Of a DNA stretch of 64,000 bases, positions 3,545 through 63,189 are shown in pieces (position 1 is the first letter of the stretch; the number at the start of each line of letters is the position of its first letter). This DNA comes from Patescibacteria group bacterium (GTDB lineage: Bacteria; Patescibacteriota; Patescibacteriia; UBA1558; UBA10009). The translations under genes were made by a program, and so were the position numbers. The notes below the pieces were generated by a model. It saw only the letters and a list, made by a program, of their open reading frames with translations, was not told the DNA's origin and searched no databases. The DNA is taken from the NCBI GenBank assembly GCA_018818425.1, contig JAHISB010000002.1, positions 2,819-66,818 on the forward strand. The letters are read 5' to 3'.

Positions 3545-4237
3545 ATGCAAGGTAAAATTCAAATTGTAGGAGGATTTATTATTGTTTTTCTGTTAGGGTT
3601 AGTTTTGGGAGGGGCAGCCGGCTTTTATTTTCAAGACAGCAGTCAAAAGTCAGCCGGCAATCAGAAAAGCGAGGTTATAGCGGAATCAGCGGCAGAAAAC
3701 AGCGCCCAATCTGTTTTGCCACAAGAAATTATCGCCAAGCAGCAGCCGGCCGTTACTACTGCCACCACTACGGAAAATATTTTGGCCAACGATTATTTTG
3801 CTTTACAGTATCCTCTGGAATGGGAGCAATCGCAGGCGCCCGAAGGCATTTCCGCCATTATTGTGAACAACCAGGAAGAAATTACCAACCCCGAAGCCCA
3901 AAAAATAAATTTCCGCACTTATTTTTCGGTTATTTACGATTCTCTGCAGGGCAGGGGGCTGGAAGATTTTGTTAATAACTATAAGGCAGAAATCACAAGA
4001 GCTTTTCCCGACGCTTCTTTTGTCAGCGAGGTAGTAAATCAGGTTAATAATCAGCCAGCTTATTTTTTAGAAGTCCAGCTAGACGACCATGATCTGTCTT
4101 TAAAAGTTTTCTTTGCTTTAATCCAGGGTCAGGAAGACGATATGTGGATTCTGACTTTTAACACCCAGGAGAGCAATTGGAGCTTATATCAAGAAATTTT
4201 TTCCCAGATTGTCAATTCTTTTGAGCTAAAAGGCTGA
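3545..4237 (+). CDS. membrane-anchored hypothetical protein
   Basis: 230 aa. N-terminal TM (IVGGFIIVFLLGLVLGGAAGFYF) followed by a Q/A/T-rich linker and a globular domain. No family recognised. Confidence 0.55.
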   Translation: MQGKIQIVGGFIIVFLLGLVLGGAAGFYFQDSSQKSAGNQKSEVIAESAAENSAQSVLPQEIIAKQQPAVTTATTTENILANDYFALQYPLEWEQSQAPEGISAIIVNNQEEITNPEAQKINFRTYFSVIYDSLQGRGLEDFVNNYKAEITRAFPDASFVSEVVNQVNNQPAYFLEVQLDDHDLSLKVFFALIQGQEDDMWILTFNTQESNWSLYQEIFSQIVNSFELKG

Positions 4238-4244
4238 TAGCTTT

Positions 4245-4994
4245 ATGTTATACCAGAGAACTAGAAATAAATTTGATCCCCAATCCAAACAGCCCTTTAA
4301 ACTGTCGCGCAGCAAGCTGGAGTTGTTTTTGGAATGCCCCAGATGTTTTTATTTAGATAGAAGACTAGGTGTAAATAAACCGCCTGGCTTTCCTTTTACG
4401 TTAAACAGCGCAGTTGATGCCTTGCTTAAAAAAGAATTTGATATTCACCGCGCTAAAGGCCAGCCCCATCCTTTAATGAAGCATTATAAAATTAAAGCGG
4501 TGCCGTTTACTCATGACGACTTAAATAAATGGCGGGAGAATTTTGTGGGCGTCCAGCACCATCATCTTAAAACCAATTTAATTATTTTTGGCGCGATTGA
4601 CGATGTTTGGATAAATGATAAAGATGAATTGATGGTGGTGGATTATAAAGCAACCAGCACCAGCAGTAGCATATCGTTAGATGACGAGTATCGGCAGGTT
4701 TTTAAGAGGCAGATGGAAATTTACCAGTGGCTGCTGCGCCGGAATAATCATCAGGTTTCTGATACTGGCTATTTTGTTTACTGCAACGGCCGCCGGGATA
4801 AACAAGCTTTCGACAGTAAGCTGGAGTTTGATGTGGAAATTATCTCTTACCAAGGCAGCGATAAGTGGGTGGAACAGACAATTCTTGATGCCCATGCTTG
4901 CTTAAAGTCAGATGACCTGCCAGAACCGGATGCAGATTGTGATTATTGCAATTACCGCCGGGCCGTCAAGGAGGTTATCAAAAATTTTAAATAG
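4245..4994 (+). CDS. PD-(D/E)xK nuclease, Cas4/RecB-like with Cys cluster (standalone)
   Basis: 249 aa. N-terminal Cys (LFLECPRCFYLD) and C-terminal Cys triad (CLKSD...DCDYCNY) typical of Cas4/AddB-type 4Fe-4S nucleases. DYK motif (MVVDYKATS). No CRISPR array or cas genes nearby. Confidence 0.6.
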   Translation: MLYQRTRNKFDPQSKQPFKLSRSKLELFLECPRCFYLDRRLGVNKPPGFPFTLNSAVDALLKKEFDIHRAKGQPHPLMKHYKIKAVPFTHDDLNKWRENFVGVQHHHLKTNLIIFGAIDDVWINDKDELMVVDYKATSTSSSISLDDEYRQVFKRQMEIYQWLLRRNNHQVSDTGYFVYCNGRRDKQAFDSKLEFDVEIISYQGSDKWVEQTILDAHACLKSDDLPEPDADCDYCNYRRAVKEVIKNFK

Positions 4995-18888: not shown

Positions 18889-18916
18889 TTGACGCCTTTT
18901 TAAAATATGTTATACT
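18889..18916 (+). promoter_or_regulatory. sigma70-like promoter of the hrcA heat-shock cluster (TTGACG-16-TATACT)
   Basis: -35 TTGACG 18889-18894, -10 TATACT 18911-18916. Immediately followed by the CIRCE operator. Confidence 0.55.
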
Positions 18917-18919
18917 GAA

Positions 18920-18946
18920 TTAGCACTCTCAACGGTAGAGTGCCAA
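18920..18946 (+). promoter_or_regulatory. CIRCE element (HrcA operator)
   Basis: TTAGCACTC-N9-GAGTGCCAA, matching TTAGCACTC-N9-GAGTGCTAA with one mismatch. Located between the -10 box and hrcA. Confidence 0.8.
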
Positions 18947-18974: not shown

Positions 18975-19658
18975 ATGAATGAGCGAAAAATGGCTTTGCT
19001 TAGCCAAATTATCAAGCAATATATTAAATCTGCCACGCCTGTTGGCTCCAAACTCTTGGCCGATAAGAGCAGTTTTGATGTATCTTCCGCTACCATCCGC
19101 AACGAAATGGCCGAGCTGGAAAAAGACGGCTATATAATGCATCCGTATACTTCGGCCGGCAGAATTCCTACGGCCAAGGGCTATCAGTATTATTTAGAGC
19201 AGATTGAGGGCGGCAAGCTTTCGCAAATTGAGCAAAACTATTTATATAGGATATTAAAAAAGCATCAGGCAGACAAGAACGAAATTTTAATTAAAGAACT
19301 GGCGAAAAAGATAGTTGAACTTTCCCACAACACAGTGGTGATTGGCTTTTCGGAAAATGAGGTATACTATACCGGTATCTCAAATTTATTTTGCCAGCCG
19401 GAATTTCAAGATCCCGAAAAAATCCAGACCATGAGTTTAATTATCGACCATTTAGACAGCGTTATGTCCGATATATTCGACCAAATTCAAGAATTAGAAG
19501 TCAGAATCGGCGAAGATAATCCTTTCGACAATAATTGCAGCGTTCTCCTGATTCCATGGGGCAAGCGTAAAAAAGGCATTTTGGGCATCTTAGGACCGAT
19601 GAGGATGGATTATGAGAAGAATTTGGGCTTGGTAAATTTCATTATTCAAAATTTTTAA
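18975..19658 (+). CDS. hrcA: heat-inducible transcription repressor HrcA (compact form)
   Basis: 227 aa. N-terminal winged HTH (LSQIIKQYIKSATPVGSKLLADK...SATIRNEMAELEKDGYIMHPYTSAGRIPT) and C-terminal GPMRMDYEKNLGLV. Confidence 0.8.
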   Translation: MNERKMALLSQIIKQYIKSATPVGSKLLADKSSFDVSSATIRNEMAELEKDGYIMHPYTSAGRIPTAKGYQYYLEQIEGGKLSQIEQNYLYRILKKHQADKNEILIKELAKKIVELSHNTVVIGFSENEVYYTGISNLFCQPEFQDPEKIQTMSLIIDHLDSVMSDIFDQIQELEVRIGEDNPFDNNCSVLLIPWGKRKKGILGILGPMRMDYEKNLGLVNFIIQNF

Positions 19659-19788
19659 TGATCACTAACGACGCGAACTAACACGAACCTATCACGAACC
19701 GCTGACTAATTAAAGTAGGTTCGCGGTTCGCGGAGGTCAGCGAATGTTTGTGTCGTCAGTGATAAAGTGATAATTCGTGAAATTCAAT

Positions 19789-20292
19789 ATGGATAAACAG
19801 AAAACAGATTTAAAAGTCAAAAAAGATCATCAAAATAAACTGGAAGAGCTTCAGGCAAAGTGCGATGAATACTTAAACGGCTGGAAGCGGGCTAAAGCAG
19901 ATTATGAAAATTTTAAAAAAGAATCAGAAAAAAGAGTAACTGGCCTAGTTGAATTTGCCACTGCCGGAATGATTTTAGAAATCCTGCCGGTCCACAGTCA
20001 TTTTAAATTAGCATTGGAGCATGTGCCCGAGGATGATAAAAAAGCTGAATGGGTTCAGGGCATAATGCATATAAAAAGGGAATTTGAAGATTTTTTTAAA
20101 AAATTAGATATTGTTGAAATTAAAACTATCGGCGAAAAGTTCAATCCGGAATTTCACGAAGCGGTAAGTCATGAAGAATCGGACCAAGAAGATGATATAA
20201 TTATTAAAGAAGTTCAGCCGGGCTATATGCTTAAAGAACAGGTAATTCAGCCGGCCAAGGTCGTTGTTTCTAAACTAGTGAGTAGTGAGTAG
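19789..20292 (+). CDS. grpE: nucleotide exchange factor GrpE
   Basis: Track start is GTG 19777; in-frame ATG at 19789. YLNGWKRAKADYENFKK matches the GrpE coiled-coil signature. C-terminal beta domain (KEQVIQPAKVVVSK). Confidence 0.8.
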   Translation: MDKQKTDLKVKKDHQNKLEELQAKCDEYLNGWKRAKADYENFKKESEKRVTGLVEFATAGMILEILPVHSHFKLALEHVPEDDKKAEWVQGIMHIKREFEDFFKKLDIVEIKTIGEKFNPEFHEAVSHEESDQEDDIIIKEVQPGYMLKEQVIQPAKVVVSKLVSSE

Positions 20293-20309
20293 GGTGTAGG
20301 GGTAGAAGG
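20275..20309. repeat. left inverted-repeat arm (gtagtgagtagggtgtaggggtag words) flanking the four-helix-bundle gene
   Basis: Imperfectly complementary to 20701-20748 (tactccctacgcactacaacc). The word gtgtaggggtag recurs at 25297-25308. Confidence 0.5.
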
Positions 20310-20334
20310 ATTTCAATTATTAACAATTAAATAT

Positions 20335-20715
20335 ATGAAAAGCGATTTTATACAATCTTATAGGGATCTTATTGTATGGCAGAAGTCGATGGACCTAGTT
20401 AAAGTCATTTACGAATTGACTAAGCAATTTCCGGAAACAGAGAAATTTGGGCTAATATCCCAAATGAGAAGAGCGGCAGTTTCAATTCCTTCTAATATTG
20501 CCGAAGGGTTCAGAAGAGGCGCTAGAAAGGATTACCGTTACTTTCTGATAATAGCATTTGGCTCTGGCGCGGAATTAGAAACCCAAATAGAAATCTCTAA
20601 AAGGCTGGAATTTTGCAATAATTTTAACTATTCAAAAGTCGATGGTTTACTAGGGGAAATAATGAAAATATTGAATGTATTTATAAAAAAGCTAGGCAAT
20701 AGTACTACAACCTAG
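20335..20715 (+). CDS. four-helix-bundle protein (23S rRNA intervening-sequence protein family, TIGR02436-like)
   Basis: 126 aa. YRDLIVWQKSMDLVKVIYELTKQFPETEKFGLISQMRRAAVSIPSNIAEG...GSGAELETQIEIS closely matches the family consensus. Confidence 0.8.
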   Translation: MKSDFIQSYRDLIVWQKSMDLVKVIYELTKQFPETEKFGLISQMRRAAVSIPSNIAEGFRRGARKDYRYFLIIAFGSGAELETQIEISKRLEFCNNFNYSKVDGLLGEIMKILNVFIKKLGNSTTT

Positions 20716-20748
20716 TTTACTACAATCTACTCCCTACGCACTACAACC
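20701..20748. repeat. right inverted-repeat arm flanking the four-helix-bundle gene
   Basis: Reverse complement contains gtagtgcgtagggagtag, pairing with the left arm words. Confidence 0.5.
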
Positions 20749-20754
20749 TAAAAT

Positions 20755-21081
20755 ATGGACAACAAAGGACAATTCAGTTTAAAGCTAATCCAAAAATGCC
20801 CGGTCTGCAATCACGATTATCTGGAGGGCAAAATTCAGATTCTTGAAGAAGCCGATGTCAGCTTTTTGGCTTATTTGACTTGCGGCCATTGCCATTCCAG
20901 CATTATCGTCAGGGTTATGACTCTGCCACACGGCATGGTGGGCAATGCCATACTTACCGACCTTTCCAGCGATGAAGTGGGAAAATTCTCCGAAGCCGAG
21001 GTTTTAAACAGCAACGAAGTTTTACAAGTTTATCAGGAGCTTTGGCAAAGCGAGGGGTTTTTGGAGAAGATGAAACAATAA
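20755..21081 (+). CDS. zinc-ribbon-containing hypothetical protein
   Basis: 108 aa with CPVC...CGHC pairs. Confidence 0.45.
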   Translation: MDNKGQFSLKLIQKCPVCNHDYLEGKIQILEEADVSFLAYLTCGHCHSSIIVRVMTLPHGMVGNAILTDLSSDEVGKFSEAEVLNSNEVLQVYQELWQSEGFLEKMKQ

Positions 21082-21163
21082 TCACAGATAGTTCACGGAT
21101 GAATCACTGATGACTCACGGATATAATTATTAACATTTTATTATTAATTTAAAGATAAATATT

Positions 21164-23137
21164 ATGTCAAAAATACTAGGTATCGACCTCGGTACCACAA
21201 ATTCCGCCATGGCCATTATGGAAGGCGGACAGCCGAAAATTTTAGAAAATAAAGAAGGCAACAGAACCACCCCTTCGATGACGGCTATTTCTAAAAACGG
21301 CGATCGTTTGGTCGGCCAGTTAGCTAAACGCCAGGCCGTAACCAATCCGGAGAACACTTTATTTTCCATTAAGCGCTTAATCGGCAGAAAGTTTGAAGAC
21401 GAGGAAGTCCAGCGCGATATTAAAACCATGCCTTATAAAATTATTAAGGCGGGCCCTTCGGCAGGCTCAGGAGGGACCGAAGGCGTAAAAGTCATTATGA
21501 GCGATAAGGAATATACGCCCCAGGAAATTTCGGCCATGATTCTGCAAAAGCTTAAAGCAGACGCCGAAGCCAAGCTGGGCGAAAAAATAGAGGAAGCGGT
21601 TATAACCGTGCCTGCTTACTTTGACGATTCGCAAAGGCAGGCCACCAAAGACGCTGGAGAAATTGCCGGCTTTAAAGTCAGGCGCATTATCAACGAGCCC
21701 ACGGCCGCGGCTTTGGCCTACGGTTTTGACAAAAAAAAGAATCAACAGATCGCCGTTTACGATTTAGGCGGCGGCACTTTCGATATTTCTGTTTTGGATG
21801 TTTCCGAAGATACCGTGGAAGTTAAATCCACCAACGGCGACACTCACTTAGGCGGTGATGATTTTGATCAGAAAATTATCAACTGGATCATTGATGAATT
21901 TAATAAAGACCAGGGCATTAATCTGACCGGTGATGCCATGGCCATGCAGAGAGTTAAAGAAGCTGCCGAAAAAGCCAAGGTTGAACTTTCTACCTCTACG
22001 GAAACCGAAATCAACCAGCCCTTTATCACCACCGATGCCAACGGTCCAAAACATTTGGTTTTAAAATTAACCAGAGCCAAGCTTGAAGAGCTGGTCGGCA
22101 ATTTAGTTGATAAAACCTTTGAGTCAGTCGATTTAGCTATCAAAGATTCCGGCTTTAAAAAAGAAGAAATTGACGAAGTAGTTTTAGTGGGCGGCATGAC
22201 CAGAATGCCCATGGTGCAAAAGAAAGTTGAGGAATTCTTTGGCAAAAAGCCGAATATCAGCGTTAATCCGGATGAAGTGGTGGCTTTGGGCGCGGCTGTG
22301 CAGGCCGGCGTTTTGCAGGGCGATGTTAAAGATGTGCTGCTTTTAGATGTTACCCCGTTGACCTTGGGCATAGAAACTTTAGGCGGAGTCAGAACTCCTT
22401 TAATTGAAAAAAATACCACCATTCCCACTTCCAAATCCCAGATATTTTCCACGGCCGCCGACAGCCAGACCTCGGTAGAAATTCATGTTTTGCAGGGCGA
22501 AAGGGAAATGGCCGAAGACAATAAAACTTTGGGCCGGTTTATCCTTTCGGGCATTCTTCCCGCTCCTCGCGGGGTTCCTCAAGTGGAAGTTACTTTTGAT
22601 ATAGACGCTAACGGCATTGTCAACGTCAAAGCGGCAGATAAAGCCACCGGCAAGGAGCAATCAATTACCATTACCGCCTCATCCGGGCTTTCCAAAGATG
22701 AAGTGGAAAAAATGAAAAAAGAAGCCGAGCTTAATGCCGAAGAGGATAAAAAGAAAAGGGAACTGGTTGATGCCAAAAATAATGCCGATTCCGCCATCTT
22801 CCAGACCGAAAAAATCCTTAAAGAATCAGGCGACAAAGTCCCGGCAGATGTTAAAAAAGAAGTAACTGAAAAAATGGAAGCTTTGAAAAAAGTCAAAGAC
22901 GGCAACGATGCCGCAGTCATCAATAAAGCGTTGGAAGATATGAATCAAACAGTGCAGAAGATTGGGCAGGCCATGTATCAATCTCAACAAGCTGGACAGA
23001 CACCCCCAACTGGCAATCAAGAACCCCAGCCATCAACCTATGGTCAGCCATCCGAAGAAAAGAAGTCTGATGGACCGGTTGAGGCAGAATTTGAAGACGT
23101 CAAAGACGATCAGAAACCAGAAGAACCAAGTAAGTAA
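21164..23137 (+). CDS. dnaK: molecular chaperone DnaK (Hsp70)
   Basis: 657 aa. [19 protein letters not shown], full NBD and SBD, acidic C-terminus. Confidence 0.95.
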
Positions 23138-23213: not shown

Positions 23214-23948
23214 ATGAAACCATCTGATATAAAAAAAATCGTTAAAGAAAAATATCAGAAAATTGCCAGAAGTAGCGGCGGTTGTGGTTGCAGTTGCCAG
23301 AATCAGAGTGTATCTAAAAACATTGGTTACTCTAATGAAGAACTACAAACCGTTGGCCAAGCCAATATGGGCTTAGGTTGTGGCAATCCCATTGCTTTAA
23401 GTAAAATAAAAGAAGGCGATGTAGTAGTAGATTTAGGCAGTGGCGCTGGCATTGACTGTATTTTAGCCAGTAAGAAAGTTGGCTCAGCCGGCAAAGTTAT
23501 TGGCATAGACATGACCGAAGAAATGATAGCCAAGGCAGAAGCTAACGTAAAAAATTTAGGTCTATTTAATATTGAATTTATGCTGTCGGATATAGAAGAT
23601 TTACCGCTTAACAATGAATCTGCCGATGTCATTATTAGTAATTGCGTAATTAATTTGGCGCCGGATAAGTTAAAAGTTTTTATAGAATCTAACAGAATTT
23701 TAAAACCCGGCGGCAGAATGTATGTATCTGACATTGTACTGTTAAAAGAATTATCAGAAATACAAAGTAAAGACAAAGAGCTGATTTCAGGTTGCGTAGC
23801 CGGCGCTCTGCTTAAAGAAGATTATATAAATAAATTATCCCAAGCTGGATTTAAAATTAATATTCTTTCCGAAAATAAGGATATCAGCAAAGAGCAGTAT
23901 CAAGCCATTCCTTTAGAGAGTATTATGATAGAAGCAATAAAACAGTAA
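23214..23948 (+). CDS. arsM: arsenite S-adenosylmethionine methyltransferase ArsM family
   Basis: 244 aa. Matches ArsM throughout: VKEKY, GCGCSC, LGCGNP, VVDLGSGAGID, IGIDMTEEM, VIISNCVINL, LKPGGR, GCVAGAL. All four conserved Cys are present. Confidence 0.75.
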   Translation: MKPSDIKKIVKEKYQKIARSSGGCGCSCQNQSVSKNIGYSNEELQTVGQANMGLGCGNPIALSKIKEGDVVVDLGSGAGIDCILASKKVGSAGKVIGIDMTEEMIAKAEANVKNLGLFNIEFMLSDIEDLPLNNESADVIISNCVINLAPDKLKVFIESNRILKPGGRMYVSDIVLLKELSEIQSKDKELISGCVAGALLKEDYINKLSQAGFKINILSENKDISKEQYQAIPLESIMIEAIKQ

Positions 23949-25164: not shown

Positions 25165-25290
25165 ATTCCAAGGACCAAAATTAAAAGATCCAAACAATTT
25201 TCAAAATAAAAAATAAAAAGTTTATTATTTCGGTTCTTTTGATTTGTTTGGTTCTTCGGTTCTTTTGATTTGGTTCTTTTCTTGTTATAA
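25165..25290. repeat. intergenic word palindrome (aaaagaaccaaa / ttggttcttttgatttg words)
   Basis: Same word family and architecture as 58155-58245. Confidence 0.5.
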
Positions 25291-25349
25291 TAAAAGTGTA
25301 GGGGTAGGTATGCGCCTCGGCGCGCTACAATATACCACTATTTTTGATT

Positions 25350-25973
25350 ATGTTGATAACTTCGACAGAAGAATTAATCACTTCAAACAGCAGAGAGCTG
25401 TTTATTTCGGCGCAGGATACCGCCGGCCAGGCCGGGGATTTTTTCAGCCATTTAGACTGGTCCGCGCCCAGCTGGGATTTATTCATTATTCTGTTTTTTT
25501 TAATAGCTTCGTTAATTTACGGCCTGTCGCTGGGCAGGGACAGAATCGTAATTATCCTAGTTTCTATTTATATGGCGCTGGCCGTGGTGGATTACGCGCC
25601 TTTTGCCGAGAAATTGATTGAAGGAACCTCTTTGGAGGGTTTCTTTTTATTTAGGGTAGTTTCGTTTATAGCGGTGTTTCTGCTGTTATTTTTTATTCTG
25701 GCCCAGTCGGCCCTTTTAAACACCTTTGCTTCCCGCAATGCTTCCCGCAGCTGGTGGCAGACCATTGTTTTCAGCATTCTCCACGTAGGGCTGATTATCA
25801 GCATCACCCTGTCGTTTCTGCCGGAATCGTTTGTTAACGAACTTTCGGATTTTACCTACCGGCTGTTTGCCACGGAAACGGCCAGGTTTGTTTGGATAAT
25901 TCTGCCCATCATTGCCATGGCCTTTATCAGAAAACCCCGCCGCAGACGGCGCGACATTGACGAATATCTTTAA
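25350..25973 (+). CDS. hypothetical membrane protein
   Basis: Track start is TTG 25344; ATG at 25350. ~5 TM. C-terminal KPRRRRRDIDEYL. Confidence 0.45.
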   Translation: MLITSTEELITSNSRELFISAQDTAGQAGDFFSHLDWSAPSWDLFIILFFLIASLIYGLSLGRDRIVIILVSIYMALAVVDYAPFAEKLIEGTSLEGFFLFRVVSFIAVFLLLFFILAQSALLNTFASRNASRSWWQTIVFSILHVGLIISITLSFLPESFVNELSDFTYRLFATETARFVWIILPIIAMAFIRKPRRRRRDIDEYL

Positions 25974-25974
25974 T

Positions 25975-26112
25975 CCGAATATATCACTAATAAATCACGA
26001 ATAATCTCACGAATATGTCACGAATTCACGAATAATCGCGAATAAAAAACTATTAGCGAATTCGTGTGATATTAGAGATGCAGATTAGCGATTTATTAGA
26101 GATATATTCGTG
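25975..26112. repeat. intergenic word palindrome (tcacgaata / tattcgtga words)
   Basis: Forward words in 25980-26040, reverse-complement words in 26050-26112. Confidence 0.5.
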
Positions 26113-27717
26113 TTATTTTATTTTGAACACACTGCTGTCATCAGTTTCAATTTTTTTTTCAAAGAATTCCGGACTCGCTTCCAGGAATTTTTTAAAATCC
26201 TGGTAGATGAAGTAATCGTTAATCCAGATGTATTCAGAATTAAATTGAGTTTTGATGGTTTGGGCGATCATAGCCGGTTGCCGCTGTTCGGCCATACAGC
26301 CCGAGGCCGTTAAATCATCCAAATCAATTAAATCGGCCGGCGCGTTGCAGGCGATTGATTTTTCGGTGATGTTGCGCCAAAGCCAGTAGAGGTTTTTGTC
26401 GTATAAATACATAAAGGTCGGGTCCAGGCCGACAATATAGTAGTTATGGTGATTATGAAAAAATAGTCTGGGGAAAGCATCCCAGGCAGTATGAAAAACT
26501 ATTGATTTTTCAGGGGTGTTGTTTTCAAGCCATTCGGCTGTTTGTTGGTAGCGGCTAATGGGGCAGGCATTTTTATACCCTAAATAGGCTTTTTTTACTG
26601 GTAAAAAGATAAGTGAAAAAAAAGTTAAAATCAATAAAGCTTTGAAAACTGGTTTTCTTATATATTTTTTAAAATCATTTATTAAGTTCTGTTGTTCATA
26701 AGATACCAGTGATTTTTTAAGCAAAGTAAAAGTATGAGCTGTTAAAAGAATTGTAAACGGGACAAAGTATTCTATAAAACGGATTGATTCAATAGTCCAG
26801 AGGCCGTAAAATATTGCTAAAATAAAGAGGGTATAGAGCAATATTTTTTCATTCATAGAGGCAATTTTCTTTTTTAAATAAATAGTTAGGATCCCACATA
26901 TAATTATCATGAAAGAAACTAAAAAAGTATCTTGAAAAAAAGTCAAAGAAGCATGAGCCTGTTCTTGTCCAACAGCCACTCCAGCATTTATTAAATTTAG
27001 ATAAAGAAGATCAAATGTTTGCTGAAAATTAAGAATAACAATATTTGGAAAGTCAGGCCTAATAATCAAAGTTAAAATTAGTGCCAGAAGAGGATAAGTA
27101 TAATATTTTAAATACAGTTTTTTAGTAAACAACCATTCAATAACCGTATAGATAATAATAATGATAAATATTTGTAACCAGCCAGCGTAACTAAGACAAT
27201 AAATTGTTGAAGAAAAAAATAAGAGTCCAAATTTTTTATTATGAACTGCATAAAGAATAATTAGAGTAAGAATAATAGAGATTAAAAAAGGCCGGGAAAT
27301 AAATAGTCGGAAAAAGAATATTGAAGAAGAAAATAATAAGAGGGTCAGCCACAATGTGTGATTTTTTATATCTAGTTTTTTTAAAAAAAATATAAAAAAG
27401 TTTATAAAGAAGAGCAATAATATAAGAACTAAAATTTTTACTGCAATAATTGGGTTTAAAAAAAGAAGCAAAGGATAAAGCAATAAATGGTAACCCAACG
27501 ATAAATCCGCAGGGAACAAGCTCCAGCTGGTATATTGAAACCAAGGAAGCTCGTTAATAACGTTTAAACCGTCCGTATTAAATAATTGAGAAATTTTAAG
27601 ATGATAAAAAATATCAGTGCCAATTATTGTTGGGCGAATAAATAAAATAAAAGTAAATAAAATCAGCAATAATAGATTGTAATAGATAATGGGCTTATTT
27701 TTGATAGCCTTGAACAT
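26113..27717 (-). CDS. GT-C-like integral membrane protein (ArnT/PMT-like putative glycosyltransferase), very AT-rich
   Basis: Track start is TTG 27759; ATG at 27717 gives MFKAIKNK... and sits ~7 nt after a minus-strand TATAAT. 10+ TM with C-terminal soluble domain. GC far below neighbours. Confidence 0.4.
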   Translation of the reverse strand: MFKAIKNKPIIYYNLLLLILFTFILFIRPTIIGTDIFYHLKISQLFNTDGLNVINELPWFQYTSWSLFPADLSLGYHLLLYPLLLFLNPIIAVKILVLILLLFFINFFIFFLKKLDIKNHTLWLTLLLFSSSIFFFRLFISRPFLISIILTLIILYAVHNKKFGLLFFSSTIYCLSYAGWLQIFIIIIIYTVIEWLFTKKLYLKYYTYPLLALILTLIIRPDFPNIVILNFQQTFDLLYLNLINAGVAVGQEQAHASLTFFQDTFLVSFMIIICGILTIYLKKKIASMNEKILLYTLFILAIFYGLWTIESIRFIEYFVPFTILLTAHTFTLLKKSLVSYEQQNLINDFKKYIRKPVFKALLILTFFSLIFLPVKKAYLGYKNACPISRYQQTAEWLENNTPEKSIVFHTAWDAFPRLFFHNHHNYYIVGLDPTFMYLYDKNLYWLWRNITEKSIACNAPADLIDLDDLTASGCMAEQRQPAMIAQTIKTQFNSEYIWINDYFIYQDFKKFLEASPEFFEKKIETDDSSVFKIK

Positions 27718-31433: not shown

Positions 31434-31735
31434 TATCACCGATCTATCACAGATGAATCACCGATCTATCACGGATAAATCACTGATAAATCACCGATCT
31501 ATCACGGATAAATCACTGATAAATCACAGATCTATCACGGATAAATCACCGATAAATCACCGATCTATCACCGATAAATCACGGATGAATCACTGATTGA
31601 TAATATAAAGTATCGGTGATTCATCCGTGGATATCCGTGATAGATCCGTGTATCTCCGTGATTTATCGGTGAGCCATCTGTGCGCTATCTGTCGATAGAC
31701 CCCGAGCTTATCGAGGAGTGAACTATCGGTGATTT
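31434..31735. repeat. ~300 bp imperfect palindrome built from ~25 tandem 10-bp units (ATCAC[C/G/T/A]GAT[C/A]TA)
   Basis: ~16 direct units (31434-31598), AT-rich centre (tgataatataaagta), then ~9 reverse-complement units (31610-31700). Extends into the last codons of dusB. Same TCACNGAT words at 17490-17570 and 21082-21125. Confidence 0.8.
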
Positions 31736-32699: not shown

Positions 32700-32810
32700 G
32701 TTGGGTGATTAGGTTAATTAGGTGATTAGGTGATTAGGTCTTAGGTCTTTAGTCTTCAATCTTTAGTCCTCAGTCATCAATCCTCAATCCTTAGTCTTCA
32801 GTCTTTAAAA
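32700..32810. repeat. degenerate tandem word repeats (ggtgattag; tcaatcc / tcttcag)
   Basis: The tcaatcc word also recurs at 34620-34680, 38200-38260 and 44810-44870. Confidence 0.5.
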
Positions 32811-38169: not shown

Positions 38170-38262
38170 AAACCAATCCATAAAATCAATTTTCAATTTT
38201 CAGTGATTTTTCAATTTCTAATCCTCAATCATAAATCCTCAATCCTTAATCCTTAATTAGTT
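38170..38262. repeat. intergenic word repeats (caattttca; tcaatcc / taatcct)
   Basis: tcaattttcaattttcagtgatttttcaatttctaatcctcaatcataaatcctcaatccttaatcctta. Confidence 0.45.
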
Positions 38263-42939: not shown

Positions 42940-43070
42940 GGTAGCCAAAGGGCTATTTTTTTAGTATAATGTTAGATATGGGAACATGTGAACATGGGAA
43001 CATTAGAACACTTGCTCCCATGCTCCCATGTTCTAATGCTTTAATGCTTTAATGCTTTAATGCTTTAATT
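42940..43070. repeat. intergenic word palindrome (gaacatggga / tcccatgttc) plus tandem aatgcttta x4
   Basis: Word family shared with 63030-63135. Confidence 0.55.
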
Positions 43071-44689: not shown

Positions 44690-44878
44690 AACAACCAACC
44701 CCTCGATAAACTCGGGGCCTATCGGCAAGAAACAAACAAATTCCAATCCCCGATTATCCCCGATTCAATCGGGGAGGGGACAAATTACAAATAACAAATA
44801 AATCCCAAAATACAAATCCTCAATCCTCAATCCTTAAGCTTCAATCCTCAATCCTTTAAGCTTTGAGTTTTAAGATTT
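44690..44878. repeat. intergenic region of G/C-clamped mini-hairpins and tcaatcc word repeats
   Basis: cccctcgataaactcgggg and ccccgattcaatcgggg hairpins, then caaataa and tcaatcctcaatcc words. Confidence 0.5.
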
Positions 44879-46018
44879 ATGAAATACATTTTAGCCATAA
44901 ATTCTGGCAGCGCTACGTTGAAAGTTAAAGTTTTTGATGAAAAATTAAAGGAAGTTTTTAAAGCGCAAATGGAAAGGGTGGGCCTGCCTCAATCTTTTTT
45001 AGTTTATCAAAAAAATAAAAGGATAAATTTTTCTGCGGGCATTAATAATCACCAGCGGGCTCTTAAAGAAATTATTAAAGTTCTGCCCGATATAATTTAT
45101 CGTGGTATAAAACTGGCGGGCCACCGGATTGTTCACGGCGGCGAGGATTTTGTAGAGCCGACAGTTCTGAATAAAACTATTTTAAAGCAAATCGGCAAGT
45201 ATAATGATTTTGCGCCGATACATAATCCCATAAATTTAAAAACAGCCCTAGCAGCCATAGCCGAATTTCCCAACGCCCGCCAAATCGGAGTTTTTGATAC
45301 TCAATTTTTTAAAGACCTTCCTGAATATACTTATCTATATTCAATTCCGGTGAAGTATTATCAGCGCTATGGCTTGAGAAAATACGGCTTTCACGGCCTT
45401 TCTCACGAAAATATGTTTCAGGAAGCCGCAGCCAGGCTGGGCAGAAAAAATTTGAATTTAATCACCTGCCATTTGGGCAACGGCGCCAGCGTCACTGTCA
45501 TTAAAGCAGGGAAAGCGCTGGATACTTCCATGGGCTTAACGCCTTTAGCCGGCATTACCATGGGCGCCCGGTCAGGCGATTTAGATCCTTACATCCCTTT
45601 ATTTTTGGTTAAAGAATTAAAGATGCCGCCGGACCAGGTTTATAAGGAGCTGAACTTTAACTCGGGCCTAAAAGGCATTTGCGGCTTGGCTGACTTCAGG
45701 GACATATTGGCTGTGGCAGGAGTTAAAGTCCCGGGTTATAAATTAGCCTTCAAGCCGACCAGATATAAAAAAGAGCTTGCCAAACTGGCTTTAAGAATAT
45801 ATCTTTACGATGTGCAAAGATACGTGGCCAGCTACAGCGGCCTTTTAGGCAGGGTTGATGCCGTAGTTTTTAGCGGGGGCGTTGGCCAGAACAGCCAGAT
45901 TGTCCGGGAGCTGATTGTGAGCGGCGTCTATTTTATCAACCGTCCCAAAATTTTGGCAATTAAATCAAATGAGGAACTGCTGATTGCCAGGAAAATTGTG
46001 AAATTTTTAGAAAAATAA
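44879..46018 (+). CDS. ackA: acetate kinase
   Basis: 379 aa. ILAINSGSATLKV, HLGNGASV, ASKEPTIDE ATPase fold. Confidence 0.85.
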   Translation: MKYILAINSGSATLKVKVFDEKLKEVFKAQMERVGLPQSFLVYQKNKRINFSAGINNHQRALKEIIKVLPDIIYRGIKLAGHRIVHGGEDFVEPTVLNKTILKQIGKYNDFAPIHNPINLKTALAAIAEFPNARQIGVFDTQFFKDLPEYTYLYSIPVKYYQRYGLRKYGFHGLSHENMFQEAAARLGRKNLNLITCHLGNGASVTVIKAGKALDTSMGLTPLAGITMGARSGDLDPYIPLFLVKELKMPPDQVYKELNFNSGLKGICGLADFRDILAVAGVKVPGYKLAFKPTRYKKELAKLALRIYLYDVQRYVASYSGLLGRVDAVVFSGGVGQNSQIVRELIVSGVYFINRPKILAIKSNEELLIARKIVKFLEK

Positions 46019-49223: not shown

Positions 49224-50039
49224 ATGACACAACAAGATATTCAAACAGCCGAAATCGGCATTATCGGCGGTTCTGGCTTTTATGAATTTATTGAAAATGG
49301 CGAGGAGTTTGAGATTGACACCGACTGGGGCAAACCCAGCGCTAAAATCACTGTCGGCGAAGTGGAGGGCAAAAAAGTGGCTTTTTTGCCGCGCCATGGC
49401 AAAAAGCATATTTTTCCGCCTCACCGGGTTCCATACCTTGCCAATATCGCCGCTTTAAAGAAAATCGGCGTTAAATACATTATTGCTCCTTCGAGCTGCG
49501 GTTCTCTTCAGGCAAACATCAAACCGGGCGATTTTATAATTTGCGATCAGTTTGTGGACAGGACTAAAAACAGGCCCGATACTTATTACAACGGTCCGGA
49601 GGTTGTTCATATTGTTGGGGCAGAACCATATTGCCCCACCCTTCGTCAAATTGCCATTGCCTCTTGTGAAAAACTCAACATTGCTCACCATCCTGCTGGC
49701 ACGGCCGTAGTTGTCAACGGCCCCAGATTTTCTACCAAAGCAGAAAGCTTATGGTTTACTAAAATGGGCTGGCAGGTGGTAAACATGACCCAGTATCCAG
49801 AAGTAGTTCTGGCTAGGGAGCAAGATATTCATTATGTTAATATTTCTTTAAGTACTGATTATGATGTCGGTATAGTGGCTGAACAAGAAATGCCGCCGGT
49901 GAATATTGAAGAAGTATTAAAAACCTTCAAGAACAATATCGAAAAAGTCAAAAATTTAATCAAAGAAATAATAAAACAACTGCCGCCGGAAGAATTAAAG
50001 TGTGAGTGCCATCGGACTTTGGAGAAATCAAAGTTGTAA
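49224..50039 (+). CDS. mtnP: S-methyl-5'-thioadenosine phosphorylase
   Basis: 271 aa. IGIIGGSGFYEF, PNP/MTAP family 2 motifs. Extended -10 TGGTATAAT at 49203-49211, 12 nt before the ATG. Confidence 0.8.
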   Translation: MTQQDIQTAEIGIIGGSGFYEFIENGEEFEIDTDWGKPSAKITVGEVEGKKVAFLPRHGKKHIFPPHRVPYLANIAALKKIGVKYIIAPSSCGSLQANIKPGDFIICDQFVDRTKNRPDTYYNGPEVVHIVGAEPYCPTLRQIAIASCEKLNIAHHPAGTAVVVNGPRFSTKAESLWFTKMGWQVVNMTQYPEVVLAREQDIHYVNISLSTDYDVGIVAEQEMPPVNIEEVLKTFKNNIEKVKNLIKEIIKQLPPEELKCECHRTLEKSKL

Positions 50040-50040
50040 T

Positions 50041-50160
50041 CTTGTATCGCTGTTCGTGTATCGTATATCGTGTATCGTAATCGTGTATCGTGTATCTCTA
50101 TCATCATTATTAAATAATTCAATAATTAACGATACACGATACACGAACAGCGATATACGA
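50041..50160. repeat. intergenic word palindrome (cgtgtatcg / cgatacacg words)
   Basis: Forward words 50041-50100, reverse-complement words 50120-50160. Confidence 0.6.
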
Positions 50161-50202: not shown

Positions 50203-51480
50203 ATGTTCAAGAGAATCAAAACTTTAATCATTTTGGCATTAAGTTTGATTCTTTTTATTTTTGTTTGCTCGCCGGCTCAGTCAGCGGATTATGATTATGA
50301 TTTAGCAATCGGTCCGACCGACATCTATTTTTCCGAAGAAATTTTAATAACCGGAGAGCAGGTGAGGATTTACGCCAAAGTTCATAATGTTGGCAATTAT
50401 GATATGTTGGGCTACGTTTCTTTTTTTCGGGGCATTGAATTAATCGGCAATTCCCAGGTGGTTTCGGTATTGCCCAATAGCAGCGACGATGTTTTTGTCG
50501 ATTTTACGGTGCCGGAAGATTCATTCAATATTCAGGCAAAAATTCAGGGCACCGACCCCCAGGACCAGAACACCGGCAATAACGAAACTCAAACAGCTCT
50601 TTTTTATCCCGAAGTAGATACCGACGGCGACGGTATTGTCGACAGCATAGATGAAGACGATGATAACGACGGCTTAACTGACAGCCAGGAAGCGGGCATG
50701 TGCACCGATCCTTTAGATGCCGACACCGATAACGACGGAGTTAACGATAATAATGATAACTTTCCCTGCGATCCGGCGGAAACCTTGGATACTGACGGCG
50801 ACGGCATTGGCGATAATGCCGATGTTGACGATGACAACGACGGCTGGTCCGATAGCCAGGAGTTAACGGCCGGCACCGATCCTTTAAGAAAAGACACCGA
50901 TGGCGACGGCGTTAACGACCCTCAAGATGCTTATCCTTTAGACCCTGATAAATGGGAAGAGGAAGCGCCTCAAAATATTTTTCAGCCGCCGCAGCTGCCT
51001 TCATTGTCTAATCAAAACACTAATCAAGCAACTGGCGAAACCACTGCCAATCAGAATGTTAATCAGGGAGATTCAGAAAATACCAGTCAAATTATTCAAA
51101 TTCTTGATGATATAGAAATGAAGCTGGGCAGTTCCAATCAATCAGACGAGCTTGCCGCTCAAGACAAAATTCAGCCATTAAATAAGTTAGGCGAAACGAT
51201 AGAAAAAGTAACCGGCGTTTCAGGACCATTTTTTAGATTAAATAATTGGTTCTTTTGGCTGATATTAGCCATTTTTATTGTTTTGATAACCATTGCAGTT
51301 ATTTTGATAATAAATAAGAAAAGGGCCGGCTCTGGTTTAAAAATGGATTCGTTAAAAAGTAAGACTTCAAAAAAAGTAGAAATTCAAAAAATAACGCCAT
51401 CACAGCCGTCAGCTAAGCCAAAACTGCCGCCCAATGTGGTTAATCTTAAAGAGATAATGAAGAAAAAGAATAAACAATAA
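50203..51480 (+). CDS. cell-surface protein with thrombospondin type-3-like Ca-binding repeats and C-terminal TM anchor
   Basis: Signal peptide. Repeated DTDGDG..D..D.DDDNDG motifs. C-terminal TM plus basic tail. Confidence 0.65.
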   Translation: MFKRIKTLIILALSLILFIFVCSPAQSADYDYDLAIGPTDIYFSEEILITGEQVRIYAKVHNVGNYDMLGYVSFFRGIELIGNSQVVSVLPNSSDDVFVDFTVPEDSFNIQAKIQGTDPQDQNTGNNETQTALFYPEVDTDGDGIVDSIDEDDDNDGLTDSQEAGMCTDPLDADTDNDGVNDNNDNFPCDPAETLDTDGDGIGDNADVDDDNDGWSDSQELTAGTDPLRKDTDGDGVNDPQDAYPLDPDKWEEEAPQNIFQPPQLPSLSNQNTNQATGETTANQNVNQGDSENTSQIIQILDDIEMKLGSSNQSDELAAQDKIQPLNKLGETIEKVTGVSGPFFRLNNWFFWLILAIFIVLITIAVILIINKKRAGSGLKMDSLKSKTSKKVEIQKITPSQPSAKPKLPPNVVNLKEIMKKKNKQ

Positions 51481-51525
51481 TCAATGAACAGTGATCAATA
51501 AACAATAATCAATGAACAATGATTT

Positions 51526-51580
51526 TCTTTGTCATTTCGGGCGGAATGAAATGGAGCCCAAGAAATCTCTTAAAATGCCT
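51526..51580. repeat. TTTGTCATTTCG(G/A)GCGGAATGAAATGGAG element copy
   Basis: Near-identical over ~50 nt to 58627-58678. Confidence 0.7.
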
Positions 51581-51779
51581 GGAAGGGCGTTTTTTCTTGC
51601 TTTAGTTATAATGATTGGTTACAATACAATACATAATAAAAAGTACCAATTAATCGCAAACGACCCAAACATTCGCGAACCAATCACGAACGATTTTATC
51701 AACAATACACGATACCCCTCGACTCGCTACGCTCGATCGGGGCCTGTCGGCACGATATACGATACATGATATACGATTT

Positions 51780-56241: not shown

Positions 56242-56251
56242 GTTGCTAGGC

Positions 56252-56390
56252 TGAATAAGTTTGATAAGTCATATAAGTTTAATGAGTTTAATAAGTTGAG
56301 TAAGTTCGATAAACTACGGAAGTAAACTTATTCAACTTATTCAACATATTCAACTTATTCAACGTATTCAACTTATTCAACATTTTAAAT
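56252..56390. repeat. intergenic palindrome of ~14 nine-bp units (gaataagtt ... aacttattc)
   Basis: Seven forward units, centre acggaagta, seven reverse-complement units. Confidence 0.75.
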
Positions 56391-63006: not shown

Positions 63007-63189
63007 TAACTCCGAAGCGGCGGAGCTTAGTATGAGAACATGGGAGCATGAGAACATGGGAGCACTAGAACATGGGAGCATTAGAACATTGGAGCACTTG
63101 CTCTTATGCTCCCATGTTCCAATGTTCTCATGCTAAACTTCGGGGCATTATACGGAATTATTTAAGCAATTGAGTATAAATTAAAATGA

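Follow-up and report, generated by a model that had tools for sequence, protein, structure and literature searches.

Four-helix-bundle gene between inverted heptamer arrays in the heat-shock operon of a Patescibacteria genome

PF05635/TIGR02436 is a very large family of four-helix-bundle proteins of unknown function (at least 7,995 matches at E<=0.001) that is known mainly from a few intervening sequences (IVSs) in rRNA and from the relative Avd. What, then, is an intact member doing between grpE and dnaK of a bacterial heat-shock operon, and what are the repeats at its two sides? The locus lies in a 64-kb stretch with 40% GC, found as contig k141_1652439 in ENA ERZ27247128, from a genome of the Patescibacteria (candidate phyla radiation, CPR); the whole stretch we call the window, and the element in question occupies positions 20276-20753. 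A first-pass annotation had noticed a 126-aa open reading frame (ORF) between imperfect inverted repeats (IRs), and had suggested that the family can move as a small IR-flanked cassette into protein-coding operons. We found that each of the repeats is a tandem array of short units, a feature missing from that annotation, that the predicted stem formed by the two arrays holds the gene in its loop, and that this layout recurs in most of the sampled homologues.

The gene and its two arms

The element is composed of the following parts:

20276-20305, + strand: left arm, about 4.3 tandem units (TAGTGAG, TAGTGAG, TAGGGTG, TAGGGG, TAG)
20335-20715, + strand: four-helix-bundle gene (PF05635/TIGR02436), 126 aa, intact, in the loop of the long-range stem
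20704-20753, + strand: right arm, seven units of 7-8 nt (ACTACAA, CCTAGTTT, ACTACAA, TCTACTC, CCTACGC, ACTACAA, CCTAAAA), complementary to the left arm

The assignment of the ORF to the four-helix-bundle family is clear. The 126-aa protein matches PF05635 with 130.1 bits (cut-off 33.8; E 4.8e-38), residues 10-114 aligning to positions 1-105 of the 106 profile positions, and TIGR02436 with 123.8 bits (cut-off 24), and at the sequence level it also matches the solved pentamer XCC0516 (2gsc, five chains; E 1e-24) and 2rld (E 2.9e-6). The family motifs SIPSNIAEG and GSGAELETQ are intact, and all 28 invariant columns are kept in a 26-sequence alignment that includes the window protein. By tblastn, no second copy was found in the window, and the gene is thus present there in single copy. 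No phage record matched the gene at E<=1e-5. An anti-phage defence protein was considered and rejected, as none of the PADLOC defence profiles matched the window protein.

The imperfect inverted repeats likewise stood up to analysis. The words quoted in the first-pass annotation sit at 20282-20305 and 20727-20748, and the best IR pairs 20276-20299 with 20720-20743, which are 83% complementary over 24 nt, with an extension to 37 nt at 70%. The local-alignment score of this IR is 28, whereas the downstream flank, shuffled 2000 times with its dinucleotides kept, scored 15.2 +/- 2.3 (p = 0.001), and the RNA duplex of the two arms is calculated at -39.2 kcal/mol, compared with -23.2 +/- 3.9 kcal/mol for shuffled arms, of which none in 500 was as good. 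In the predicted fold of 20255-20770, the arm stem closes the ORF in the minimum free energy structure as well as in the centroid. The TAGs of the left arm follow each other with a period of 7 and thereby cover all three reading frames, and grpE stops at the third of them; the right arm starts within the final codons of the ORF and extends to 1 nt 5' of the ATG of the downstream gene, orf108.

Inverted arrays across the gene family

The homologue set comprised 81 genes, namely that of the window, one at locus L038, and 79 that a scan of metagenomes yielded with 46-67% identity. Each gene was scored by how well its 110 nt of upstream sequence could at best be paired with the sequence that surrounds and follows its stop codon. 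In the 71 genes with both flanks the median score was 30, as opposed to 14 for flanks mispaired across loci; 68% of the 71 were above the 95th and 31% above the 99th percentile of this null distribution, and the same threshold was reached by 3% of 235 non-adjacent control genes from the same loci. Inverted arrays were present in 46 of the 69 unique homologues (67%), and at least one heptamer-type array in 56 of them. Inspection of the flanks of other four-helix-bundle genes, as had been proposed, thus revealed a gene with inverted arrays as a recurring unit. Among the few control genes that passed is the hsp20 gene of L038 (L038:5602-6024), which itself scores as IR-flanked (28), and flank complementarity alone is therefore no proof of a cassette.

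The period of the arms is 7 in 33 and 8 in 13 of the 46 loci, and 32 of the 46 left arms contain at least two TAGs. The units vary from locus to locus (TAGCTTN, TAGTGGN, AGTGAAR, CAGGGGC, and others), and the arms of each pair match. In the orthologous pair L103/L129, which has the same neighbours and 67% protein identity, TAGnnCG/CTACGnn stands against TAGnnTG/CTACAnn, a unit change that is compensatory. The layout is typical of the gene family across Patescibacteria, with examples in Cyanobacteria and Bacteroidota. These include cultured organisms, as Anabaena sp. 90 has inverted AGGTGAC arrays (score 49) and Riemerella anatipestifer has AAGGTTN arrays (score 40). Pseudanabaena has long direct arrays instead of inverted ones.

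The premise that the family is usually encoded inside 23S IVSs did not hold for this set: all 81 genes have protein-coding neighbours at short distance, and an Rfam scan found no rRNA beside the genes in the 20 loci scanned. The premise reflects the name of the family and not its distribution. In 56 of 67 cases the gene points in the same direction as its upstream neighbour, the spacers being a few tens of nt long, and the neighbours, which include sdhA/sdhB, ABC transporters, DnaB, and HisRS, represent 136 Pfam families among 95 proteins, which argues against any functional linkage. Two homologues lie between cas6 and cas4 of type I-D CRISPR-Cas systems, L165 on pANA02 of Anabaena sp. 90, with the inverted AGGTGAC arrays, and L166 on pPg_01 of Pseudanabaena galeata, with direct arrays of about 15 CTAAAAG units upstream and about 10 CCAAAAG units downstream. 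This placement may explain why the four-helix-bundle family has been listed as CRISPR-associated (PMC10910872).

In most orthologous-site pairs, the identity of the cassette protein is similar to that of its neighbours (70-90%), which gives the picture of a long-lived, vertically inherited gene, and dN/dS values of 0.07-0.14 in five homologue pairs indicate purifying selection and thus a functional protein. A cassette is found at one and the same sdhA/sdhB junction in four loci (L111, L131, L121, and L126), and two of these, L111:3094-3468 and L131:3995-4366, have neighbours that are 91% and 89% identical and flanks that match up to the boundaries, with proteins of only 55% identity and different arms. 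These sequences suggest a replacement or an independent insertion at one site. In L150:1098-3433, a 1176-bp segment with a whole cassette, with arms of the CAGGGGC type, is tandemly duplicated at 99.7% identity. As for the idea that the family moves as an IR-flanked cassette, the recurring unit and the addition to an operon (see below) can be kept, the IR as a cassette-specific terminal repeat cannot, and mobility is something that we infer, with one clear case that suggests replacement.

The closest known counterpart is the IVS in helix 45 of the Coxiella burnetii 23S rRNA, in which terminal repeats form a 28-bp stem that is cut by RNase III and whose loop contains an S23p (PF05635) ORF, with tandem heptamers (GACAGAT) of variable copy number upstream of the ORF (PMC4990558). 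The Coxiella ORF has been reported to be decaying and probably untranslated, and further ORF-bearing 23S IVSs are those of Leptospira (PMC4990558). The window element resembles such IVSs in its size (about 430-480 nt), in the PF05635 ORF in the loop, in the terminal IR stem of 24-28 bp, in the tandem heptamers between stem and start codon, and in its sense orientation in a highly transcribed host unit. It differs in that its host is a protein-coding heat-shock operon and not helix 25 or 45 of 23S rRNA, in that its arm gives the upstream gene a stop codon, and, with respect to Coxiella, in that the ORF is intact and its homologues are under purifying selection. The window element hence has the structural features of a 23S IVS, a stem of at least about 20 bp that encloses the element and tandem heptamers near the ORF, and lacks the defining location in a 23S helix.

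Other known systems are less similar. Cyanobacterial short tandemly repeated repetitive (STRR) sequences are tandem heptamer arrays in intergenic DNA for which direct arrays, rather than hairpins, are the usual description; the heptamer arrays that flank the four-helix-bundle gene in Anabaena sp. 90 and Pseudanabaena are of this kind. In the open-access literature, to which our search was confined, we found no link between STRR sequences and PF05635 genes, and in the papers on the gene family, IVSs, and STRR sequences no PF05635 genes were described as repeat-flanked cassettes outside rRNA. Avd of diversity-generating retroelements belongs to the same four-helix-bundle superfamily, and the window protein matches bAvd and NF033474 weakly (30.1 and 25.3 bits). 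An Avd was nevertheless rejected, as these scores are under the cut-offs (40 and 80), a reverse transcriptase is encoded by neither of the flanking genes, and no template/variable repeat is apparent. Miniature inverted-repeat transposable elements (MITEs) and other non-autonomous elements share the small size, the inverted ends, the lack of an own transposase, and the patchy distribution, whereas the ends here are tandem arrays that are not conserved between copies, and a conserved, selected gene is carried. Around the window element, only short A-rich matches (CTAAA / TAAAA) could be found as a potential target-site duplication, which is not convincing, and the flanks in the window, in L038, and in L111/L131 revealed no consistent duplication. 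A MITE or insertion-sequence type element was rejected, since arm units differ between loci and no consistent target-site duplication was found.

The heat-shock operon of the window and of its relatives

The order of the cluster is hrcA, grpE, 126-aa ORF, orf108, dnaK, a gene for an S-adenosylmethionine (SAM)-dependent methyltransferase, and dnaJ, and it is preceded by an operator of the CIRCE type (controlling inverted repeat of chaperone expression):

18889-18916, + strand: promoter-like site, TTGACG-16-TATACT, 10/12 matches, TG extension
18920-18946, + strand: CIRCE operator with one mismatch, directly after the promoter-like site
18975-19658, + strand: hrcA (PF01628, E 3e-21)
19660-19775, + strand: ORF-less inverted-array hairpin that fills the hrcA/grpE spacer (-48.4 kcal/mol, z -5.5)
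19777-20292, + strand: grpE (PF01025)
20755-21081, + strand: orf108 (108 aa), four Cys (CxxC...CxxC), no Pfam family
21080-21122, + strand: orf108/dnaK spacer with a direct array, unit length 11 nt (TCACGGATGAA type)
21164-23137, + strand: dnaK
23214-23948: SAM-dependent methyltransferase gene between dnaK and dnaJ
25291-25340, + strand: small spacer element 3' of dnaJ, with GTGTAGGGGTAG and CTACAAT around a GC-rich mini-hairpin

An Rfam scan of the 64-kb window detected a single tRNA and no rRNA. The gene has the orientation of the operon, no promoter-like site was found just upstream of it, and no terminator-like site was found on the + strand between grpE and dnaK. The first-pass annotation had assumed that the gene is co-transcribed with the heat-shock genes, and this is plausible: a promoter-like site with CIRCE precedes hrcA, the transcript with the cassette likely starts at 18889-18946, and as far as can be told from the sequence, the gene is likely transcribed from this CIRCE/HrcA-controlled promoter.

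The proposal that the gene is inserted within the hrcA-grpE-dnaK cluster was examined in orthologous clusters. In 80 relatives from GTDB, whose GrpE identity does not exceed 58%, the cluster usually reads hrcA-grpE-hsp20-dnaK-(variable)-dnaJ, and a hidden Markov model search detected the gene in the grpE-dnaK gap of none of them. The opposite outcome, a gene that is universal at this site without IR conservation, is thus not what the relatives have. In one of the 80, L038 of the Parcubacteria, the gene is found elsewhere in the cluster, just before dnaJ, and its cassette has an IR of 26 nt with 92% complementarity, the sequence of which is unlike that of the window. The dnaK-dnaJ gap is in general a variable slot in the relatives, with about 20 nt to 1.9 kb and differing genes.

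Closer relatives, obtained by a GrpE search (orf108 83-96%, DnaK 87-92% identical), have the order hrcA-grpE-hsp20-orf108-dnaK, and in the four closest of them hsp20 takes the place of the cassette:

L170-L174: hsp20 in the slot between grpE and orf108

In L175, grpE and orf111 are separated by a 52-nt ORF-less hairpin. With homologues that are 83-96% identical and precede dnaK in the closest relatives, orf108 itself is a native member of the cluster and not a part of the cassette. The window has no hsp20 across its 64 kb, and at 20293-20755 the cassette therefore sits where the nearest kin have hsp20. The C-terminus of GrpE tells the same. In 20 relatives, the tail ends with ...PAKV(V/I)V(S/A)(E/K)* or a close variant, about 4-6 codons earlier than in the window, where GrpE has 5 additional codons (LVSSE) that lie in the left arm; the usual stop is lost, and the TAG stop at 20290-20292 is provided by the left arm. 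Together with the hsp20 slot and the 80 relatives, this tail bears out the addition to the cluster. A contig from a second sample is identical to the window, and exact-sequence look-ups of P0001 and of the window hrcA product gave no match. An empty site at the strain level was not found, and the nearest relatives display a swap of hsp20 for the cassette and not a clean presence/absence. Taken together, we consider it very probable that the window cassette combines an IVS-type anatomy with an addition to this operon.

The left word was also said to recur at 25297. It does recur, as a single further copy of GTGTAGGGGTAG, and the position is 25296-25307. By chance, 0.08 copies of the word would be expected, and two copies occurred in 0/100 shuffles. 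The copy stands 17 nt before CTACAAT, a word that is also present in the right arm. The site was considered as a second cassette and rejected, as it is a small spacer element whose fold does not differ significantly from background (z -0.8), and the element at 25291-25340 may be an ORF-less relative of the arms. Directly 3' of dnaJ and just upstream of this copy, a 26-nt unit, GTTTAGTACTTCGGTTCTTTTGATTT, is present twice (25220-25272).

Array hairpins without a gene and the reading of the element

The element is not the only array structure of the window, as tandem arrays with units of 7-11 nt fill about a dozen intergenic spacers. Most of these arrays are inverted pairs, each of which forms a single long hairpin that reaches from the stop codon to the start codon:

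Array spacers, first part of the window: 19660-19775, 21080-21122, 25220-25340, 25971-26115, 31435-31692, 32704-32808, 38220-38257
Array spacers, continued: 42978-43069, 44815-44879, 50039-50160, 51465-51777, 56247-56389, 63021-63142

The units differ between the spacers (ATCACNGATNN, ATGRGAAC, ATCGTGT, ATAAGTTTG, AATCCTC), and the loops contain no ORF. In 437 kb of Patescibacteria grpE loci we counted 19 such ORF-less array hairpins, often exactly after grpE or before dnaK, and every close relative has one directly 5' of its orf108 homologue:

Hairpin upstream of the orf108 homologue: L174:1627-1744, L173:3108-3204, L170:3253-3354, L175:1670-1745

The unit of this hairpin is wholly different in each genome despite the 83-96% identity of orf108, which means that the structure of spacer hairpins is kept and their sequence is replaced far faster than that of the flanking genes. 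A search of open-access papers turned up no account of array hairpins in CPR genomes. Intercistronic hairpins of phage T7 and of E. coli operons are cut by RNase III. The ORF-less 23S IVS hairpins of Salmonella and others (cited in PMC4990558), long imperfect hairpins that are cut by RNase III in transcribed spacers, resemble the ORF-less hairpins of this genome, which differ from all of these in that they are built from tandem 7-11-nt units, that their sequence is fully changed between close relatives, and that cutting is a prediction. The arms of the window element are the same kind of structure as the ORF-less array hairpins and no cassette-specific terminal repeat. The density of ORF-less hairpins is not enriched on gene-bearing contigs (2.9 per 100 kb there and on grpE contigs), and thus lends no support to a contig-level link with the gene.

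On balance, we favour the view that 20276-20753 is an IVS-type hairpin-loop cassette with the following mode of transcription, processing, and inheritance. The cassette would be transcribed from the CIRCE/HrcA-controlled promoter within hrcA-grpE-(cassette)-orf108-dnaK, and the arms would pair in the transcript to an interrupted stem with a core of about 24 bp and about 40 pairs in all. This stem could be a substrate of RNase III or of another double-strand-specific processing activity, as in true IVSs; processing by RNase III, for which the analogy to these IVSs speaks, we rate at slightly below even chances. Cutting would release a small mRNA and would divide the transcript between its grpE and dnaK portions, and the period-7 TAG/CTA units, with stops in every frame on both strands, would insulate the neighbours from read-through translation. 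The cassette would be a long-lived passenger, handed down for the most part by vertical descent, with occasional gain, loss, or replacement, and no functional partner of the chaperones. A regular-expression search of the window for the RNase III signature motif was negative, and the gene may lie elsewhere in the genome.

Several observations weigh against this view. Co-transcription and RNase III cutting are deduced and not observed. The IR of the window, with its score of 28, is only mid-range within the family. Five of the 69 homologues have direct arrays only, and 18 are below the threshold, although several of the latter still have visible heptamers. The mismatches in the arms, counted on the sense strand, comprise 40 G.U and 43 A.C, i.e., G.U is not preferred, and thus nothing favours a selection for pairing in RNA over pairing in DNA or over a pairing that is simply young. 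Furthermore, some cassettes lie within ORFs of Eco57I/PglX-type N6-adenine methyltransferases that stay open throughout the cassette in frame +2:

L146:385-5001: cassettes at 1424-1783 and 3980-4351
L151:1620-3839: intragenic cassette
L141:40-2613: intragenic cassette

An open alternative frame occurs in only 4 of the 81 genes, all of them intragenic, the mean being 8 stops, and the inner genes have dN/dS values of 0.07-0.11. If the stem were cut efficiently there, the mRNA of the host gene would be lost. The lacking G.U excess, the minority of direct arrays, and the intragenic cassettes argue against a role purely at the RNA level, and the stem may act in RNA or in DNA. Finally, the arms may be part of the site and not move along with the gene, as ORF-less hairpins are common here and at the corresponding spacer of relatives.

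The last point leads to the alternative that survives best, namely that the hairpin was there first. Array hairpins would be the normal intergenic punctuation of this clade, and the ORF would have entered the loop of a grpE/orf108 hairpin that was already in place, by insertion or by capture, so that the arms would be those of the site. This is consistent with the many window spacers that contain ORF-less array hairpins, with the 19 hairpins of the grpE loci, several of which lie exactly in the grpE-dnaK spacer, and with the hairpin directly upstream of orf108 in every close relative. Further in its favour, L175 has a grpE/hairpin/orf111 arrangement with TAGTGAG-like and CTACTAA units that resemble the window arms, the ORF-less hairpins of L086 have the unit TAGCTTN in common with the arms of its gene, and L117 and L135 each have three occurrences of the array, one 5' of the ORF, one at the 3' end of the ORF, and one in inverted orientation beyond it. 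However, at the sdhA/sdhB junction of L111/L131 arms and ORF both differ, which fits a joint change; the TAGTGAG/TAGGGTG unit is found in no ORF-less array of the window save for one 12-mer at 25296; and in Coxiella the stem with the heptamers belongs to the IVS and not to helix 45 of the 23S rRNA. A gene that travels with its arms is hence favoured by L111/L131 and the Coxiella IVS, and arms that belong to the site are favoured by L175 and L086. Because the arrays turn over so fast, none of this is decisive for or against a pre-existing hairpin, which we regard as an explanation with a real but clearly minor chance of being correct.

It is rather unlikely that the arms act in DNA, as terminal IRs or as cruciform or hairpin ends for a trans-acting recombinase, a transposase, or replication-linked template switching, in which case the element would be mobile but non-autonomous, with the gene as its passenger, and processing of the RNA would not matter. 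The absent excess of G.U over A.C would be explained thereby, as would the patchy distribution with its same-site replacement, the cassettes within ORFs, and the wholesale turnover of arms at orthologous sites, which looks more like a repeated re-creation than a slow compensatory drift. On the other hand, arm sequences are not conserved between cassettes and no common recombinase site is evident, no target-site duplication can be defined, the window has no transposase or integrase gene next to the element, most orthologous-site pairs look vertical at neighbour identities of 70-90%, and the bias for the sense orientation (56/67) points to a dependence on host transcription.

Least probable of all, and by a wide distance, is a true heat-shock regulon member that works with GrpE and DnaK and has incidental repeats: the gene does lie within a CIRCE-controlled cluster in the same orientation, and L038 as a second genome, of the Parcubacteria, has it in the dnaK-dnaJ region, but it is absent from the cluster in 79 of the 80 relatives and in the five closest ones, the neighbours of its homologues span 136 unrelated Pfam families, and the flank complementarity is family-wide and not incidental.

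A much wider claim would be that PF05635 genes are obligate residents of heptamer-array hairpins in many phyla and that the protein is the element's own factor, which would make 23S IVSs, STRR-type arrays, and ORF-less hairpins one system. For example, the protein as a pentameric ring could hold about five units of its flanking arrays, be it in RNA or in single-stranded DNA, and thereby protect, process, or propagate the hairpins. We consider this improbable, even more so than an action of the arms in DNA.

With the favoured IVS-type hairpin-loop cassette, an unexplained family gains a genomic habit, as most of its sampled members lie in the loop of a heptamer-array hairpin, co-oriented within ordinary operons and sometimes within ORFs. 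The 23S IVSs would thus be recast as the rRNA-borne subset of a wider class of elements, and the function of the family becomes testable. A practical consequence concerns annotation, because such cassettes can alter the C-termini of neighbouring proteins, as for GrpE here, and can be mistaken for operon partners, as in this heat-shock cluster and in cas operons. In addition, a second phenomenon is exposed, which is that operons of Patescibacteria are punctuated by array hairpins whose structure is kept while their sequence is replaced between close relatives.

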